64,000 nucleotides of DNA from positions 65,140 through 129,139 of the forward strand of contig CAZMIM010000001.1 in NCBI GenBank assembly GCA_964566505.1. The letters run 5' to 3'. The notes beneath the pieces are model-generated. The model searched no databases and had not been told where the DNA came from. It saw only the letters and a program-made list of their open reading frames with translations. This document shows, one piece after another, positions 1-64,000 of the stretch (its first letter is position 1; every line of letters starts with the position of its first letter). The translations under genes were made by a program, and so were the position numbers. The stretch comes from an uncultured Candidatus Saccharibacteria bacterium (GTDB lineage: Bacteria > Patescibacteriota > Minisyncoccia > Phycocordibacterales > PCTT01).

Positions 1-1115
1 GAGCGCAAATCATTTGCATGATTTAACAGAACAAAGATGGGTGTGTTAATTGCAGCCCATGAATATGCACCTCCTCTCTTTCCTTTTCTTGGGAAAAAGT
101 CTATTTGTCCATTTTTTAAAAATTCTTCAAAAACATCCTTGTATACTCCCCCCATTTTCTCTAGTGCATTTGAGAAAATTTTGATTGAGTCTTCTGCAGA
201 AAATTTTCTCTTGATTTTCCCGACTGGCGCATGTCTATCAACATAATAAAAATCTTTCAAACCAGTCATTTTCTTTTTCAGGCGGAAAAACTTTTTACTT
301 GCCGAGTAGTTACCAGCCACAGCATCTCGCAAAGCAAATACAACATCTTTGTCCATTTCATCCCCCTTCATTCTTTCTTCCAGAAGATAAGTATAACCTC
401 GTAAATTATCTTCAATTTTTTTGTTTGTTATAAGTGCATTTATTTCACTTTCAGCAAAATCAGTGGTTTCTTCCAACAAATTATCAAGGAGCTCTCTAAT
501 CTTTCTTCTATCTTTTGTATTCAATTTTGTGAGTTTAGAAGACGCTTCTGTTAAAGAGAGCTTCTCCCCTTTAAAAGTTATAGTTTTTTTGTGTAGAGAT
601 TTTTCTCTTCCTTGTGTCCACATACTACTACTTACGCCAGACTTTAGATTGAGAATCTTTTCTTCATCTTCAGACAAAAGATATTTTGTGTTTTCAAAAA
701 AGTTCTCAAGTAGATATTTATACTCTTTTAGATTGGGGTCTTTTAAAAACTTTTTCTGATTTGCTTTTGTTACATCTTTAAAAGACACGTTATAAAAAGT
801 AATATTGTTATATGCCTTGCGAAGCCGCTCGGAAAACAAATTGATTTTTGATTTTATTTTTGTATTAGTGCTGTCCAAATCCTCACTAAAATGTAAATAC
901 ATCATTGGACGTGGAAGTTCAAAATGTTTTTCTCTCTCTTGCATTACCTTTTTTAGCTCTTTTGCGTCTGTAAGATACTTGCGATTGTTTTTATACTTTT
1001 TCGCAAAAGATGAATATGCACGTTCAATTTTTTGTACATCTTTTTCGAGTTGTGGGTCATCTATTGATTTATACAACCGCTTAAGATCCCATTCTGTTTT
1101 GTAACCTTTTTTCAT
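1..1115 (-). CDS. pepF: Oligoendopeptidase F (M3B family), N-terminal part. The gene continues past the window start, which is why it is absent from the ORF track.
   Basis: Manual minus-strand translation from ATG at 1115..1113 gives an uninterrupted frame to position 1: MKKGYKTEWDLKRLYKSIDDPQLEK...GKRGGAYSWAAINTPIFVLLNHANDL, a PepF-like N-terminus with the GKRxGAYS motif. The plus-strand ORFs listed in this region are low-complexity antisense. Confidence 0.8.
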   Translation of the reverse strand, partial: MKKGYKTEWDLKRLYKSIDDPQLEKDVQKIERAYSSFAKKYKNNRKYLTDAKELKKVMQEREKHFELPRPMMYLHFSEDLDSTNTKIKSKINLFSERLRKAYNNITFYNVSFKDVTKANQKKFLKDPNLKEYKYLLENFFENTKYLLSEDEEKILNLKSGVSSSMWTQGREKSLHKKTITFKGEKLSLTEASSKLTKLNTKDRRKIRELLDNLLEETTDFAESEINALITNKKIEDNLRGYTYLLEERMKGDEMDKDVVFALRDAVAGNYSASKKFFRLKKKMTGLKDFYYVDRHAPVGKIKRKFSAEDSIKIFSNALEKMGGVYKDVFEEFLKNGQIDFFPRKGKRGGAYSWAAINTPIFVLLNHANDLR

Positions 1116-11423: not shown

Positions 11424-12146
11424 CTATTCTTCTCGAAGTGGTGCGTTTTTGATTATTTCAAGCGCCTCCTCGTCTGTGTCTATGATGGTGTATAGATCTA
11501 TATCAGACTCATCAATAGTTTTGTAATCTTTTGCGAGTGTCTCTCTTATAAACCCATCAAGCCGTCCCCAATACTCTTTTCCTACAAGAATAATAGGTAC
11601 GCGAGGAATCTTTCTAGTTTGAACAAGTGTGAGAATCTCAAAGAACTCGTCCATTGTTCCAAACCCTCCTGGGAAATAGACATATGCCTCTGCTGAAAAT
11701 GTGAGAGTTACTTTTCGTGAAAAGAAATAATAGAAAGACATAGAGTCCTCTACATATGGATTCACTACTTGTTCAAAAGGAAGCTCAATATTGAGTCCAA
11801 GTGAATTACCTGGCCCATCCGCCTCTTTTGCTCCCCTGTTTGCACCTTCCATAATTCCAGGCCCTCCTCCTGTGATAACTGTGTATCCGAGCTCATCTAC
11901 AATCTTATAAGCAAGGTCTCGTGCTCTTTGGTAGTGCTCGTTATCTTCAGGAAATCGTGCTGAACCAAAAATAGTTACTGAACGAGGATGGTTTTTAATA
12001 AACTCAAATCCATCATGAAATTCTCTTGTAATGCGCCCCACGCGCTCATCGATTTCTTTTTGAACATCATCACGCTTTAGCGGTTCTGTATGAAGCTTTA
12101 CTGAAGGAACATTTATTATTTTTTTGTTTGGATCGATTGGTGTCAT
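11424..12146 (-). CDS. LOG family protein (cytokinin riboside 5'-monophosphate phosphoribohydrolase-like, TIGR00730)
   Basis: ITGGGPGIMEGANRGA and PGGFGTMDE motifs. Confidence 0.85.
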   Translation of the reverse strand: MTPIDPNKKIINVPSVKLHTEPLKRDDVQKEIDERVGRITREFHDGFEFIKNHPRSVTIFGSARFPEDNEHYQRARDLAYKIVDELGYTVITGGGPGIMEGANRGAKEADGPGNSLGLNIELPFEQVVNPYVEDSMSFYYFFSRKVTLTFSAEAYVYFPGGFGTMDEFFEILTLVQTRKIPRVPIILVGKEYWGRLDGFIRETLAKDYKTIDESDIDLYTIIDTDEEALEIIKNAPLREE

Positions 12147-15406: not shown

Positions 15407-16117
15407 CTAGTTGCTAGCATCATTCCATCCTTGATGTTCAAGTGCTTTTCTTGCTGCCTCTTGTTCTGCTTCTTGCTTTGATTTTCCAGCTCCTTCTGCA
15501 ACTCGCTCATTTTCAAAATACACCGCCACAGTAAAGTGCTTGTCATGGTCTGGCCCACGCTCTTTTACAGTATCGTATCGTGGTGTTACTGAGAGCTCTT
15601 CTTGAGCTTTCTCTTGTAGAAAGCTCTTTGCGTCTTGCCATAGTCTGTTCTCTACAATCTCATCTGTCAGGTCAAATAGTGTGTTTGAGATAAACTTCTT
15701 AGCATTTTCATATCCGCTATCAAGATAAATAGCACCAATAATTGCCTCAAAAGCATTTGCAAGAATATATTGCCGTGCACGCCCTGTGTCTTTTGACTCT
15801 CCCTTTGAAAGAAGTAGATAATCATTTACACCAAGCTTCCGTGCTGCTTCTGAAATAGTCTGTGTATTTACAAGCGCTGCTCGTACTGCTGTCAGCTCTC
15901 CCTCTGGCTTGTCTGGATACTTTTCAAAAAGATACTCTGTTATTACAAGCTCCAAAACTGCATCTCCAAGAAACTCAAGACGCTCGTTGTGCTTTATATT
16001 TTTTTGTTTGTGCTCATTTACATATGAGCGGTGCGTAAACGCACGACGAATCAAGTCCTCATTAGCAAATGTAATACCAATGTGTTCCTGAAACGCTTTA
16101 AAATCTTTTTCAATCAT
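15407..16117 (-). CDS. rnc: Ribonuclease III
   Basis: ERLEFLGDAVLELVITEYLF signature and a C-terminal dsRBD. Confidence 0.92.
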   Translation of the reverse strand: MIEKDFKAFQEHIGITFANEDLIRRAFTHRSYVNEHKQKNIKHNERLEFLGDAVLELVITEYLFEKYPDKPEGELTAVRAALVNTQTISEAARKLGVNDYLLLSKGESKDTGRARQYILANAFEAIIGAIYLDSGYENAKKFISNTLFDLTDEIVENRLWQDAKSFLQEKAQEELSVTPRYDTVKERGPDHDKHFTVAVYFENERVAEGAGKSKQEAEQEAARKALEHQGWNDASN

Positions 16118-16124
16118 ATTTTTA

Positions 16125-17030
16125 TTATTCCTTTTCTGGATGCAGGAGTAAGTCAGCTGCCTTTGTCACAATTGGGAAGATATCTTCATAAAAATTAAGA
16201 TGCACAATCTCCTCGAGTGGGAACCATCGAGAATCATCGAGTCCCGATTTGTCCTCAGTACTCTTTAGCGGGCTATATGGTGCTTCTGCAAGGAAGTACC
16301 GCACCTGCTTTCTGATTTTTCCTTTCTCTGGATGAGAAGAAATATATTCATTGTCTCCAAGAAGTGGACCTATAGTAATAGGTAGACCCATCTCCTCATC
16401 TATCTCTCGGATAGCTGTCTCTTCGAAACTTTCGTTTCCTTCTACCTTTCCTTTTGATAGTGTCCAGTGGCCAAAAATGTCATGAACAAATGCCATGTAT
16501 ATATTTTCTTCGTGACGTGCATATACCACCGCACCTGCAAGTTTTACTATTTCCATCTCTTCGTATGGAATATCTTTTTTCTTTGCGCTTTTTTCATCTT
16601 TCCCCGGCTCTCCTATCTCTCGATATACAGAACCTAGCACTCCGTTTACAAACTTACCGCTTGATTCTCCTCCAAAATTCTTTGCGAGCTCTATGGCCTC
16701 GTTGATAGCCACCTTTGGTGGAACATCTTTTCTGTCACCATACAAAAGCTCATATAGACCTATTCTAAGAATATTTCGATCTACATTTGCAATTTTTTCT
16801 ATTGGCCAATCTGGTGCGGCCTTGGAGATTACCTCATCGAGTTTGTCTTTTTTATCTATCACTCCTGTAAGGAGGCTATTCATGTACGCATCATCAGCAG
16901 TACCAGGAGCAAATTCTTCCTGATTCCGCTTTAATATTTCTTCAAGTGGTTCGTGAGAATCATTTTCTCGCAAATCCCACTCAAAGAGTGTTTGCATTAT
17001 TATTGAACGTGATAAATGTCTTCCTGCCAT
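16125..17030 (-). CDS. nusB: NusB (N-utilisation substance B) N-terminal domain fused to a C-terminal NUDIX hydrolase domain
   Basis: NusB core (SRSIIMQTLFEWDL...NVDRNILRIGLYELLY...PPKVAINEAIELAKNFGGESSGKFVNGVLG), then a Nudix box GHWTLSKGKVEGNESFEETAIREIDEEMGL. Confidence 0.75.
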   Translation of the reverse strand: MAGRHLSRSIIMQTLFEWDLRENDSHEPLEEILKRNQEEFAPGTADDAYMNSLLTGVIDKKDKLDEVISKAAPDWPIEKIANVDRNILRIGLYELLYGDRKDVPPKVAINEAIELAKNFGGESSGKFVNGVLGSVYREIGEPGKDEKSAKKKDIPYEEMEIVKLAGAVVYARHEENIYMAFVHDIFGHWTLSKGKVEGNESFEETAIREIDEEMGLPITIGPLLGDNEYISSHPEKGKIRKQVRYFLAEAPYSPLKSTEDKSGLDDSRWFPLEEIVHLNFYEDIFPIVTKAADLLLHPEKE

Positions 17031-59732: not shown

Positions 59733-61223
59733 ATGAAAGGGCTTGCGGAACTCACAAAAAAAATACAACCACTTTCAAAAAAAGATGAAAAGCGTTTGGC
59801 GCAGAGCTATAGCTTTGCAAAGCAAGCCCACAAAGGACAAACACGATATTCAGGAGAACCATATTTCAATCATGTATATGAGACGGCTTCACTTCTTGCA
59901 GACATGGGAATGTCTGTAGAGACAGTGATAGCTGGACTTTTGCACGACACAATAGAAGACGCAGAAGTAACAGATGAAAGTATCTCATCACTCTTTGGAG
60001 AGGAGGTGCTTTTTTTGGTTAAGGGTGTAACAAAGCTTGGAAAGATTCGCTATCACGGTGTAGAACGACACGTAGGAAGCCTTCGTAAACTATTTCTTGC
60101 TACATCTTCTGACCTTCGTGTTCTCATAATTAAACTTGCCGATAGGCTCCACAACATGCGCACACTCGAGCATGTTCCAGAAGAAAAACAAAGAAGAATC
60201 GCTCTTGAAACAATGGAGGTGTACGCACCTATTGCCCACCGACTCGGTATGGGAAAGCTTATGGGAGAGCTACAAGACCTTTCATTTCCATATGTATATC
60301 CAGAAGACTATGTGAAAGTAAAAGAGCTTGCTGAGCAAAAGAGAAAAGAAAAGACAGCAAAGCTCAAAGAGCTATATAAAGAACTTGAGAAATCGCTTAA
60401 AAAAGAGAAAGTGTCTGACATCACTATCGACTACCGACTCAAGCATATGTACAGCATTTATGAAAAGCTGAAAAGAAAAGACTGGGACATTAACAGGGTG
60501 TATGACATTTCTGCGCTTCGTATTATTGTTCCTACTGTTAGTGACTGCTACAAAGTACTTGGTGTGGTTCATGGAATATGGCGACCACTTCCTGGGCGCA
60601 TAAAAGACTATATTGCATTTCCAAAACCAAACGGATACCAAAGCATCCACACTACTATTTTTACAGGAGACGGAGACATTGCAGAGATACAAATACGAAC
60701 CGCAAAAATGCACCAAGAGGCAGAATACGGAGTGGCATCTCATGCAAACTATAAAAAAGATGGTGGTGGTTTGATGTCGCTAGAATGGTTTGGAACACTT
60801 CTAGGTCAAAAGCCAACTCAGCATGATGAAGAAGAAAAAGAGGCGCCAGAGTGGATTAAAGAACTTGCAAACACACAAGAATACACCGATGAGCCAGATG
60901 AGTTCCTAAACAATCTAAAGACAGACTTCTTTAGTGATAGGCTTTTTGTATTTACACCACTTGGAGATGTTATCGACCTTCCACAGGGTTCTACTCCAAT
61001 TGATTTTGCTTATCATGTTCACACACATATTGGAAACCATACTTTTGGTGCAAAAGTTAATGGGAAGTTTACCTCACTTGAGAGTGAACTTAAAAACGGT
61101 GACATTGTAGAGATTATCACCAAAGAAAAAAGCCACCCGACAACCAAGTGGCTCGACGCTGCAAAGACAACTCTTGCACGACGACATATTAAAAGTTATT
61201 TGCAGTCACAAAAATCTAAATAG
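59733..61223 (+). CDS. rel: (p)ppGpp synthetase/hydrolase RelA/SpoT family (short: HD, synthetase and TGS domains)
   Basis: HD motif (LLHDTIEDAEV), RelA_SpoT synthetase motifs and a C-terminal TGS; 496 aa. Confidence 0.88.
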   Translation: MKGLAELTKKIQPLSKKDEKRLAQSYSFAKQAHKGQTRYSGEPYFNHVYETASLLADMGMSVETVIAGLLHDTIEDAEVTDESISSLFGEEVLFLVKGVTKLGKIRYHGVERHVGSLRKLFLATSSDLRVLIIKLADRLHNMRTLEHVPEEKQRRIALETMEVYAPIAHRLGMGKLMGELQDLSFPYVYPEDYVKVKELAEQKRKEKTAKLKELYKELEKSLKKEKVSDITIDYRLKHMYSIYEKLKRKDWDINRVYDISALRIIVPTVSDCYKVLGVVHGIWRPLPGRIKDYIAFPKPNGYQSIHTTIFTGDGDIAEIQIRTAKMHQEAEYGVASHANYKKDGGGLMSLEWFGTLLGQKPTQHDEEEKEAPEWIKELANTQEYTDEPDEFLNNLKTDFFSDRLFVFTPLGDVIDLPQGSTPIDFAYHVHTHIGNHTFGAKVNGKFTSLESELKNGDIVEIITKEKSHPTTKWLDAAKTTLARRHIKSYLQSQKSK

Positions 61224-62265
61224 AGAAATTGCTGATTGAGTATAGATCCTCTTCCCCGCTCTCTTCCTCTTTTTGCTCTTCTTTGGCTGGCAAATCACCG
61301 AGCGCATCAGATGCAGAGAGAACTGTTTTTTGCTCTGACACATAGTAGAGCTTTGGCTCATACATTCCTACTTTATCTGGTGTAGTGCCAGACTCTTCTA
61401 TAAATCTATCCATCATTGCTGATGTAGATTTTTTCTCGTCAGTACTTTTTACCAAATCCAAAATACTCTCAAGGTCTTGTGGTGAGAAGAAGTCGATAAC
61501 AATACGCCCACCAATATCTTTTTGTTCAATCTGTACTCGAGTACCAAGAGACTCTGCGAGCTTCTCCTCCATCTTTATTATAGTTGGATCAACTGTTCGC
61601 TCTTTCTTTCGCACCTTGTCATAGGCAATACGGCGCGCAATAGACTCTGCCTGGCGAACTGTTAGCTTTTTGTATACAAGCTCTTTAAAGAGTGTTTTTT
61701 GCTGTTCTGGACGGTCATCAAGCATGAGTAGTGGTCGTGCATGACCTTCTTTTATGCGTCCTTGGATAATGGCATCCAAAACATCTTCAGGCAAAATAAG
61801 AAGCCTGATAGAGTTTGAAACATACTCTCGTGAACGACCCACCTTTTCTCCGATTTGTGCATGTGTGAAGTTAAACTCTTCTGCAAGTTGTTTGAATGCT
61901 CGGGCGCGGTCTATTGGGTTTAGGTCTTCTCGTTGGAGGTTCTCGATAATAGCAAGCTCGAGCTTTTCACGAGCGCTTTGTTGTCCGCTTCTGATGATTA
62001 CCGGCACTTGAGAAAGGCCTGCGATTTGTGATGCTCGGTGTCGTCTCTCTCCTGCAATAAGCTCATATTCAACACTAATACCACCGTCTTCATTTACGAT
62101 TTCATTTCGTGTTACCACAAGAGGTTGAAGCACTCCATACTGACGAATGGAATCTGCCAAATCATTGAGTCGCGCCTCGTCAAACTCTTTTCGTGGCTGA
62201 TATGGGTTGGGAACTATCTTTGTTACTTCCACCCAAAAAATTGCATTTTCGTGAAAATTTGCCAT
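61216..62265 (-). CDS. parB: ParB/Spo0J-family partition protein (no adjacent parA)
   Basis: ParB box GERRHRAS and an HTH; 3' end overlaps rel by 8 nt. Confidence 0.85.
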   Translation of the reverse strand: MANFHENAIFWVEVTKIVPNPYQPRKEFDEARLNDLADSIRQYGVLQPLVVTRNEIVNEDGGISVEYELIAGERRHRASQIAGLSQVPVIIRSGQQSAREKLELAIIENLQREDLNPIDRARAFKQLAEEFNFTHAQIGEKVGRSREYVSNSIRLLILPEDVLDAIIQGRIKEGHARPLLMLDDRPEQQKTLFKELVYKKLTVRQAESIARRIAYDKVRKKERTVDPTIIKMEEKLAESLGTRVQIEQKDIGGRIVIDFFSPQDLESILDLVKSTDEKKSTSAMMDRFIEESGTTPDKVGMYEPKLYYVSEQKTVLSASDALGDLPAKEEQKEEESGEEDLYSISNFSI

Positions 62266-64000
62266 ATACACCTATACTTATAGTGATATTGTAGCACAGA
62301 TGAAAATTGGGAGTGTATGTGCATATTGCACAAAAGTGCGAGTTGCAGTACGCTTCTTGTATGTGCATGCCGCGGTGGCGGAATTGGTAGACGCGCACGA
62401 CTCAAAATCGTGTTCCTTACGGAGTGAGAGTTCGATTCTCTCCCGCGGCACAAGGAAGGAATGATTAGAGCAAAATCAGTGTTCTGTATCGAGCAGTCCT
62501 CAACATCCTGAGGTTCGACCCTGGAGTTTTTCTTTCGGGCTCTGGCCAGCATCTCAGTGAATGCCTGGATGGGTTTCGTGTTGTAAACACGAAGTGATTG
62601 GCCATCCAGAACCAGGTTCGACCCCCAAGCGGTCAACGATCCCCGCTTATCGCGAGGCGTCCCCTTAGCGATCACCTTGGATAGGTCGTGGGCCAGGTTT
62701 GCTAATTCTGCAGCTTTGTCGTACCACACCCCTTTCTTTTGATTTGAGCGTAGCGAGCGCTCCCGTTGGTCTAGCTCGGCTGTCATTTCGTTGAACTCAG
62801 TGTCATCAATCATCGCTTTTGAACGCATGATGACGACCTCCTTGCGCTGGCTTTTTAGATCAGCGATGGCATTAAGACGACAGTTGTCAACAGATCGGCT
62901 AGCCTCGATTTCTTCATCTCGTAGGTGAGTAAGATGCTTGAGGATCCAGTCTCTTAGGGCGGTAGAAATCGCCAGGTTCTGCCTGATATAGTCCAAGAGG
63001 AATGCCTCGACCTTTCTTTCCTCTATTGCAGGCGCCCTCACCCCAATCATCTTCCTTGCTCGGCTGCTACGATAGTACACGTAGTGCCTGAATGTTGGGC
63101 TCTTCATGTGACTTATCGCCAGGCTACACTTAGGACAGTGCTCTCTAGTAGCGTATGAAAACTTGTGCCTGCAGCCCGAACACACAACGTGGTCTTTGAA
63201 GTCGGCTACCACCCCGCAATCATATTGAGCGCAGCGAATAAACCCTGTGTATACGGCTCTGGGCCTTGCGTTGTGTCTCCTTCGACCGAGTCTACCCAGC
63301 ATCTTCTGAATGCGCCAGTATTCATCCTCAGAGATCGCTCGTGGAAGTGCTTGATCCATTTCATATCTCTTTCCCTCATAAAAGAAGAAGCCTGCGTAGT
63401 ACGTGTTGGCAAGAAGCTTGTAGAAGTTGGTCAGCGTGACTGGTTTGCCTCCAGATCTTTTTCTTATCGGCGTCCTTAGACCCAGCTCATTGCATGCATG
63501 CTCCCACACCTCTCGAACCGAAAACCTTCCACAAAGAATCCGACGAAACACCTCCTCGATGATGGGGAATCGCTCTTCGTCGACTTGCCACCTTTTTGCT
63601 CCTTTTTCCCCGGATTTGTCATTCTTATAGCCAATAGGCGCTAGTCCGTGTGGGATGCCAAGTGACGCTTTTCGCCGTTGTCCCCGCCTTACGTTCGAGG
63701 AAAGGTCGCGAATAAATTGGTTGGCCATCCCAAATTCAACAGCAAGAACGATGACGTTGGTCTCTGGGGTATAGCGAGATGTTGGCGTTCTGATTTCCTG
63801 GAGTACTCCTCGTTGAAGAAGGTCCATTATCCGACCGCCATCAATTGGGTTTCTGGCAAGCCGGTCTAGCTTCCAGCATATAATGGCGTTTGCATCCCCT
63901 CGTTCGACTCGTTCGAGCATTGCATTGAATGCCGGACGACCAACAGCTTTCGCAGATCGCTCCTCAGTGAATGGGGCGCCTGCGACAAAGAGTCCCCGCG
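62223..64000 (-). CDS. Large serine recombinase (integrase), partial: the N-terminal catalytic region runs past the window end. The C-terminal ~80 codons read through antisense tRNA-Leu and into parB, so the true stop is uncertain.
   Basis: The frame stays open to 64000 (…LFVAGAPFTEERSAKAVGRPAFNAMLERVERGDANAIICWKLDRLARN is a resolvase-domain motif); zinc ribbon CSGCRHKFSYATREHCPKCS and a coiled coil follow; GC ~55%. Confidence 0.75.
   Translation of the reverse strand, partial: RGLFVAGAPFTEERSAKAVGRPAFNAMLERVERGDANAIICWKLDRLARNPIDGGRIMDLLQRGVLQEIRTPTSRYTPETNVIVLAVEFGMANQFIRDLSSNVRRGQRRKASLGIPHGLAPIGYKNDKSGEKGAKRWQVDEERFPIIEEVFRRILCGRFSVREVWEHACNELGLRTPIRKRSGGKPVTLTNFYKLLANTYYAGFFFYEGKRYEMDQALPRAISEDEYWRIQKMLGRLGRRRHNARPRAVYTGFIRCAQYDCGVVADFKDHVVCSGCRHKFSYATREHCPKCSLAISHMKSPTFRHYVYYRSSRARKMIGVRAPAIEERKVEAFLLDYIRQNLAISTALRDWILKHLTHLRDEEIEASRSVDNCRLNAIADLKSQRKEVVIMRSKAMIDDTEFNEMTAELDQRERSLRSNQKKGVWYDKAAELANLAHDLSKVIAKGTPRDKRGSLTAWGSNLVLDGQSLRVYNTKPIQAFTEMLARARKKNSRVEPQDVEDCSIQNTDFALIIPSLCRGRESNSHSVRNTILSRARLPIPPPRHAHTRSVLQLALLCNMHIHSQFSSVLQYHYKYRCIWQIFTKMQFFGWK
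62370..62451 (+). tRNA. tRNA-Leu (anticodon CAA), type II with long variable arm
   Basis: Acceptor GCCGCGG/CCGCGGC, anticodon loop CUCAAAA, 13-nt variable arm, T-loop TTCGATT. Confidence 0.88.
62452..64000. mobile_element. Edge of an integrated element (prophage/ICE/genomic island) inserted at the 3' end of tRNA-Leu(CAA)
   Basis: Abrupt GC rise to ~55% exactly after the tRNA 3' end; serine integrase gene oriented with its 3' end toward the tRNA. Confidence 0.6.

Follow-up and report, generated by a model that had tools for sequence, protein, structure and literature searches.

At the right-hand end of the 64,000-nucleotide stretch of DNA analysed here (the window), a minus-strand gene for a large serine recombinase (LSR) runs without a stop through the antisense of a tRNA-Leu(CAA) gene and on into the 5′ end of the host parB. 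How does a recombinase gene come to end in this way? A preliminary description of the locus had proposed an element integrated at the tRNA gene, and for the extended open reading frame (ORF) had offered three alternatives: a genuine overlapping C-terminus, an att-site-associated fusion or an assembly artefact. The tRNA and ORF calls, comparison with the closest relative (contig L001) and the junctions found in other relatives bear out the integrated element and the read-through. Among the three alternatives it is the fusion that is supported, by the point of divergence from L001, by the register of the junction in a census of the family and by in silico reconstruction of the recombined sites. 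We conclude that the junction is very probably the P-O-B′ integration junction of a mobile island that a serine integrase has inserted right at the 3′ end of tRNA-Leu(CAA).

The recombinase gene and its 3′ end

The minus-strand ORF is open from position 63998, where it leaves the window, to a stop at 62223–62225, and an ORF scan thus agrees with the earlier statement that the frame is free of stops down to 62223 and runs past the window end. The N-terminal ~37 codons, including that of the catalytic serine, lie beyond this end; the serine (S15) is present and invariant in the closest relative, P0001, and in the family. Pfam identifies Resolvase (PF00239, 5e-11) and Recombinase (PF07508, 4e-5) domains, the zinc-ribbon cysteines C273, C276, C288 and C291 are invariant across the family alignment, and the AlphaFold model of P0001 has long coiled-coil helices at 385–484. 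The best Foldseek matches are the SPbeta, phiC31, Bxb1 and LI serine integrases (E 6e-18 to 1e-8). By its domain order, zinc ribbon and coiled coil the window protein is a large serine recombinase, and the resolvase domain, zinc ribbon and coiled coil recognised in the preliminary description are all confirmed. The features on which the argument depends are as follows.

62448–64000, minus strand: element-derived part of the LSR gene, 517 codons (Pfam, identity to P0001, dN/dS, fold matches)
62448–62472, minus strand: P arm, formed by the last native LSR codons (...ALIIPSLC), with 93% nucleotide identity to L001 and at the end of the conserved block of the family
62448–62451, no strand: putative crossover window, running from the last two acceptor bases through the discriminator to the base that follows it, with element DNA to the right and host DNA to the left
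62429–62437, minus strand: AATCGAACT, the antisense T loop and candidate zinc-ribbon domain (ZD) box of the B′ arm, at +11..+19, from reading of the sequence and its agreement with the attB position of the ZD motif in Rutherford 2013 (PMC3783163)
62223–62447, minus strand: non-native read-through of 74 codons and a stop, made up of antisense tRNA-Leu, spacer and parB 5′ end, in place of the P0001 tail GGIEIIRTSIIEDLRENSP
62369–62450, plus strand: tRNA-Leu(CAA), intact (ARAGORN, Rfam), its 3′ acceptor strand and T arm being the putative B′ half of the att site
61216–62265, minus strand: host parB (Pfam ParB_N, HTH_ParB and ParB_C), with its ATG at 62265

The closest relative of the window LSR, P0001, is encoded on contig L001 and has 96% amino acid identity over 517 residues. 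The ratio of non-synonymous to synonymous substitution (dN/dS) between the two genes is 0.08, showing that both are under purifying selection. At the nucleotide level the window and L001 are 93% identical through CCTTCCTTGTGC and then diverge. The final shared codon, TGC, occupies 62448–62450, that is, the discriminator and the last two acceptor bases of the tRNA, and the two sequences part ways at 62447. Since the divergence comes immediately after this codon, the 74 window codons that follow (62226–62447) are non-native. The preliminary description had traced these codons correctly to the antisense tRNA and the parB 5′ end, although it had put their number at ~80. P0001 has in their place a native tail of 19 codons, in whose DNA the T-arm box of the tRNA recurs, displaced outward by 5 bp.

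The 120 best homologues are 540–630 residues long and share a conserved block ending ...FEP..(12–15 residues)..VF.SV.PTLL. Beyond it three kinds of end are found: a stop two residues later (LLRG and stop), the sequence RGQDSNLRP.., which is the translated antisense of a tRNA acceptor stem and T arm, and a longer tail with a ..D.VRT.. motif. Alignment to homologues, the check to which the preliminary description had pointed, thereby located the expected C-terminus: the conserved block ends at the junction codon. The best match in the JGI metagenomes was merely 40% identical, with no close relative among them, and one family member was found in IMG/VR. Proteins identical to the TopA, RelA and ParB of the window are on record at NCBI, all from one 283-kb contig; the LSR is not among them, and its best match in that protein collection is P0001, at 93% identity. 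The depositors' annotation probably treats the gene as a pseudogene or has left it uncalled because of its abnormal 3′ end.

On the host side ARAGORN places tRNA-Leu(CAA) at 62369–62451 on the plus strand. The full-model match to Rfam RF00005 (60.1 bits) covers 62369–62450, which makes 62450 the discriminator base. The first ~14 codons of the 349-residue ParB are overlapped antisense by the LSR read-through. No further att remnants were found elsewhere within the window. The closest named relatives of the window's TopA, at ~65% identity, are from Zambryskibacteria and Paceibacterota, and by this measure the host looks like a bacterium of the candidate phyla radiation (CPR), of Paceibacteria type.

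Census of junctions in the family

A hidden Markov model made from the family alignment and cut at the junction codon was run over all the fetched loci (80 GTDB genomes, 79 metagenome contigs, L001, one viral contig and the window). The alignment reaches the junction codon in 74 copies. Numbering from the first base after this codon, as throughout, a T-arm hairpin with a 5-bp stem and the T-loop consensus is found at +6..+22 in 43 of the 74, and in all 43 the register shift is 0. A further ~17 copies have an attP-type box at +16..23 and a native tail, and four stop at the contig end. The fused tRNAs are mostly Asn(GTT), with Trp, Ser, Tyr, Gln, Leu(TAA), Arg and, in the window, Leu(CAA) also represented.

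Run in its plain form, ARAGORN finds an antisense tRNA at the end of the LSR ORF in 36 of the 80 genome loci. Eight further genome loci, apparent misses by the program, have intron-split tRNA-Asn genes (L002 11618–11907, minus strand; also L006, L018, L052, L059, L065, L070 and L074). In these CPR genomes the target tRNA is interrupted in the anticodon loop, which is why plain ARAGORN misses them. Rfam identifies the insert in L002 as a group I intron (RF00028, 65.5 bits), and the others share its GATATAGTCC signature.

Every tail-bearing copy has a tRNA-fused relative at 53–96% identity, where the typical identity within the family is 33–40%. The tail-bearing and tRNA-fused copies are therefore two states of the same lineages, interleaved, and not separate clades. 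Judged by their sequences, dozens of relatives, mostly in CPR bacteria, share this mode of insertion.

Architecture of the attachment sites

Past the junction codon the window reads CGCGGGAGAGAATCGAAC, with the TCGAAC of the tRNA T loop at +13..18, and L001 reads GGGGGGATAGAAATAATACGAAC, with the box ACGAAC at +18..23. This 5-nucleotide offset of the box between tRNA-fused and tail-bearing copies recurs across the family. The clearest pair, with 82% amino acid identity, is L046, fused to tRNA-Gln, which reads GGGGACTTGGAC-TCGAACC (GGAC-TCGAAC), and L045, with a native tail, which reads GGAGGACTGGAC-GATGT-TCGAAC (GGAC-GATGT-TCGAAC). The P′ arm of the element copies the tRNA end, with an insertion of five bases ahead of the T-loop box. 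In the LI integrase the 9-bp ZD motif occupies half-site positions 16–24 in attP and 11–19 in attB (PMC3783163). The box positions of the family equal these numbers, being +11..19 in the 43 tRNA-fused copies and +16..24 in the ~17 tail-bearing ones.

The junction cores of four relatives, L012, L014, L070 and L080, intersect at −4..+1. Taken together with the point at which the window and L001 diverge, this intersection confines the crossover to the four bases 62448–62451, within which the exact crossover dinucleotide would fall.

Both junctions in relatives

The far junction was sought upstream of tRNA-fused copies, on the same strand, as a junction core together with an attP-type box. Orphan tails were found 7–11 kb away in L012, L014, L070, L080, L081 and L148, each of which has both junctions on one contig. 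The orphan tails retain the whole of the conserved tail motif. The preliminary description had expected the second att repeat to be a direct repeat of the tRNA 3′ end. This is not what the relatives have: their two junctions share merely 6–11 nucleotides, followed by the tRNA-like P′ arm with its 5-bp insertion, and there is no long tRNA repeat.

When the outer halves of L012, L014, L070 and L080 are joined in silico, the tRNA is followed by host trailer DNA, and in L014 and L080 the restored trailer forms a terminator-like hairpin (in L014, ...GGAGC followed by GATTAAAATACCCTTATTTTACAAGGGTTATTTTTT). Joining the inner halves of the same four loci gives an intact LSR ORF with a conserved tail, for example ...STLLRTWDDVRTEIINAE and stop.

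We are thus able to propose how the window came to have its present form. The region 62448–64000 would be the integrase-proximal end of a mobile island whose attP lies within the 3′ end of the LSR gene, the P arm being the ...PSLC codons and the P′ arm encoding the short native tail. The attB would be made up of the tRNA itself, with its 3′ acceptor strand and T arm as the B′ arm, and of its trailer as the B arm. The strands would be exchanged within ~4 nucleotides around the discriminator base, a position that would leave the tRNA intact. The LSR tail would be displaced to the far end of the island and the LSR gene left reading into the antisense tRNA, where a stop comes after two codons in most relatives and, in the window, not for 74 codons. 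The far junction would lie to the right of 64000, and is predicted to have the native tRNA-Leu trailer, TTGTGC and then a GG..ATAGAAATAATACGAACC-like arm encoding ..IEIIRTSIIE.., with ACGAACC ~17 nucleotides after TTGTGC (minus-strand orientation), encoding ..GGIEIIRTSIIE... The LSR of the window itself probably catalysed the insertion. The rise in GC content at the junction, from about 0.41–0.45 to about 0.51, also speaks for the proposal.

Several points weigh against this proposal. The far junction of the window's own element is beyond 64000, outside the stretch analysed. The recombination activity of the LSR is a prediction. The P and B arms have no obvious ZD box, and the sites are less symmetrical than the LSR sites of the textbooks. 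L001 does not represent a free element; its 'attP' is better regarded as a P-O-P′ junction belonging to an array, of the kind to be expected where insertions stand in tandem. Finally, an excised circular form was not seen, there being no terminal overlaps in any fetched locus.

Alternative explanations

One further possibility goes beyond the proposed insertion, namely that exchange of the tail is a built-in switch, such that the full-length enzyme of the free element and the tail-less enzyme of the integrated one differ in activity or direction, as reported for the integrase of myxophage Mx8. The native tails of the family are 14–55 codons long (median 34) and are conserved as protein well past the ~25-nucleotide P′ arm, with the motifs ..VRTWI........[YF][IV]P[DS][LF] and ..RAAALIYAHF[KR]KEF. 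They are predicted to be helical with pLDDT above 90; in P0001 a confident helix at 546–573 (pLDDT ~94) spans the crossover point. The retention of the entire motif by the orphan tails at the far junctions, and the Mx8 precedent itself (PMC6070905), point the same way. The tails vary in length, however, and the DNA box explains part of their conservation, VRT being encoded by GTTCGAACC. A switch of this kind is plausible, though we regard it as less likely than not.

It is very unlikely that a different recombinase beyond the window, such as a tyrosine integrase, inserted the island with the LSR as a passenger. The 3′ ends of tRNAs are the classic targets of tyrosine integrases, just 14 of the 297 serine-integrase islands in the TIGER survey are at t(m)RNA genes, and the rest of the window's element is unseen. 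A passenger LSR would nevertheless not account for a crossover that is always at the same codon of the LSR gene, for far ends that bear the LSR's own displaced tail or for arms that follow the ZD-box geometry of LSRs. Nor do the junctions of the relatives have the long tRNA-derived direct repeat, and a scan of large ORFs from five complete, two-junction elements (L012, L014, L070, L080 and L081) gave no match to Phage_integrase.

We give scarcely any credence to the idea that the 74 added codons form a true C-terminal domain, maintained by selection and overlapping the tRNA and parB antisense. The frame is open for 74 codons beyond the junction, and the P0001 helix across the junction indicates that the C-terminal segment matters to the native protein. 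The extension has, however, no similarity to the tail of any homologue, the junction is exactly where the 96%-identical P0001 departs from the window, and tRNA, spacer and parB account for the entire sequence of the extension. Read-through in 39 integrated copies has a median of two codons; the 74 of the window is the longest, the next being 72 at tRNA-Leu(TAA) and 55 at tRNA-Tyr. In the host part of the window, with six frames counted and true genes included, 15% of 76-codon windows are stop-free, and a read-through of 74 codons therefore needs no selective explanation. Its length is most likely due to chance, and the extension probably has no function.

That the junction is a metagenome assembly chimera, in which a host contig was joined to a foreign one at the tRNA, is barely tenable: there is a real step in GC content exactly at the tRNA end (0.40–0.46 to the left and 0.50–0.525 to the right, rather than the ~55% first reported), and many related contigs break near the tRNA, but the junction has the same single-nucleotide register as 42 others, mostly from different genomes, the element and tRNA share ~6 nucleotides and scattered matches, too little for a k-mer chimera, and relatives have both junctions with host genes on each side.

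Internal boxes and putative terminators in the recombinase gene

Two further boxes lie within the LSR gene of the window.

62615–62622, minus strand: internal GTCGAACC box encoding the conserved GSNL (family codon test)
62512–62519, minus strand: second internal GTCGAACC box, encoding VEP where the other family members have FEP, 103 nucleotides from the first

A T-loop-like palindrome, (G)GTTCGAACC(T), encodes both the GSNL and the FEP motifs (VEP in the window), and the VRT motif of the tails is the same 9-mer read in the third frame. At the GSNL-type sites the serine codon is TCG in 69 of the 70 found, against a background of 11% elsewhere in these genes. GTTCGAACCT is present at 34 of the 54 FEP-type sites matched by pattern, and most of the other 20 look like false matches. 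The boxes are 103–105 nucleotides apart (in L014, at ~11343 and ~11446), and the wobble base before TTC is G regardless of the amino acid. This bias in codon and wobble base at the GSNL and FEP boxes indicates selection at the level of DNA. As candidates for the missing ZD box of the P arm the boxes were rejected: they are 72–82 and ~175 nucleotides from the crossover, at a variable distance, which places them outside a canonical 50-bp attP. The repeated TCGAACC boxes also raised the idea that the 3′ region of the LSR gene consists of captured tRNA fossils. This was unsupported, no tRNA-like signal being detected by Rfam in L014 11250–11515 or in the window at 62452–62720.

Most family members have, within the last LSR codons at −42..−10 from the junction codon, an A-tract, a covarying hairpin of 6–14 bp and a T-tract, encoding ..EKT..F..VFST (L014 ~11476–11506; also L010, L017, L019, L102, L104, L148 and others). 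In tRNA-fused copies the hairpin has a median folding free energy (dG) of −10.8 and a median z of −3.65; it is absent from the window and L001. It looks like a bidirectional intrinsic terminator, which could substitute for the displaced terminator of the tRNA. In contrast to most relatives, no replacement terminator was found 3′ of tRNA-Leu in the window.

It is possible, though we put it forward tentatively, that this large, mostly CPR-associated clade has all it needs for integration condensed into ~110 codons at the end of the LSR gene, with detachment of the conserved C-terminal helix acting as a factor-independent directionality switch. The parts, on such a reading and with the same reservation, might be the tRNA-mimicking P′ arm, the crossover codon, the terminator hairpin (in most members) and the two in-frame TCGAACC boxes as accessory binding sites.

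Gene content of the islands

Defence genes are recognisable in four of the five two-junction elements scanned and in the L001 island, among them the following.

L012 1739–7358: type III restriction-modification and Schlafen/AlbA_2 ATPase
L014 3261–7407: Shedu SduA and PDC-S02 nuclease, PD-(D/E)XK
L070 3279–7925: Avs-like NACHT protein of 1548 residues
L001 16289–17923: OLD-family nuclease

We considered whether the elements are prophages and rejected this: the genes recognised in the complete relatives scanned are those of restriction-modification, Shedu, an Avs-like NACHT protein and nucleases, and a PHROGs scan of ten ORFs (L014 and L080) gave no phage structural matches.

Directly upstream of the LSR, on the same strand, are two unrelated types of conserved ORF, 265–298 residues long and with no Pfam match, which are candidates for replication or directionality functions.

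L081 8371–9219 and L070 8526–9323, LSR strand: first type, 39% pairwise identity
L012 8230–9126 and L148 6131–6979, LSR strand: second type, 31% pairwise identity

In some loci tandem orphan P′ arms (..GCTC, then C.GACTTGGGA.GATGTTCGAAT..) are found upstream of the resident element, at intervals of 0.5–1.1 kb. Either earlier insertions have left them behind, or they are tiny non-autonomous cassettes that use the same site.

L006 near 840, 1862, 2933 and 3450: orphan P′ arm array
L015 near 97 and 880: orphan P′ arm array
L017 near 804, 1923 and 2636: orphan P′ arm array

Contig L001 opens (1–1712) with the gene of an AcrB-family transporter at 60% GC, compared with 41% for the CPR host of the window, and at 16086–16140, 5.7 kb downstream, it has a second P′-like arm (TTGTGC, then GCAGGATTAGAAATAGTACGAACC). 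This suggests that L001 is a composite island, possibly one that has moved between very different hosts.

Significance and comparison with known systems

Serine integrases are the principal tools where large DNA is to be inserted, and protein genes are regarded as their natural targets. For one half-site the clade described here relies on the acceptor and T-arm end of tRNAs, which is close to universal, and this suggests integrases with a half-site in every genome. Its tRNA-copy arm with a 5-bp spacer would be a natural, many-fold replicated illustration of the rule by which attB and attP are discriminated. With attP inside the gene, each integration would edit the enzyme, and control of direction could be tested by comparing tail-plus with tail-minus proteins. 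The islands also act as carriers of defence genes in CPR bacteria, a group about whose mobile elements little is known. For annotation, read-through ORFs and 'pseudogenes' that adjoin antisense tRNAs should be read as attL or attR junctions.

In the literature searched we found no earlier description of a tRNA-targeting clade of serine integrases, or of a serine integrase with an intragenic attP. Mageeney et al. (2020) list 14 of 297 serine-integrase islands at t(m)RNA genes, a use of tRNA said there to be previously unreported. The tycheposons of Prochlorococcus are likewise small, cargo-carrying integrative elements, and their maps show tRNA and partial tRNA genes; in the preprint that describes them an LSR is present in 27 of 937 elements. 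Their hosts and integrase lineage may differ from those of the present family, and neither an intragenic attP nor exchange of the tail was found reported for them. The Islander/TIGER tyrosine-integrase islands share the tRNA 3′ end as target, the preserved tRNA, an integrase adjoining it and accessory or defence cargo. They differ in having a tRNA-length repeat, as opposed to 6–11 nucleotides here, and in their tyrosine integrase, of which none was found among the large ORFs of the five relatives scanned.

Closer in principle is the Mx8 integrase, where attP also lies within int and integration creates a new 3′ end (IntP to IntX) with altered properties (PMC6070905). Mx8 Int is, however, a tyrosine recombinase, whereas the window enzyme is a serine recombinase with another chemistry and site architecture. 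A looser likeness is to the SSV-type 'suicidal' integrases of archaeal viruses and plasmids, in which the recombination site is within the integrase ORF and the gene is split on integration (PMC7253208). Those are tyrosine recombinases that are left as two large fragments and inactivated; the present family loses a tail of 14–55 codons and its catalytic and DNA-binding domains remain intact.

With the phage LSRs (phiC31, Bxb1, A118/LI and SPbeta) the family shares the order of its domains, that is, catalytic, recombinase and a zinc ribbon with an inserted coiled coil, as well as short att sites and a ZD box that is displaced outward by 5 bp in attP relative to attB. It departs from them in targeting a tRNA 3′ end instead of a protein gene, in having attP inside its own coding sequence, in having a clear ZD box on one arm per site only, and in that the relatives checked are 7–11 kb defence islands and not phages. 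The read-through seen in the window is itself an ordinary consequence of this tRNA-targeting, intragenic-attP variant.

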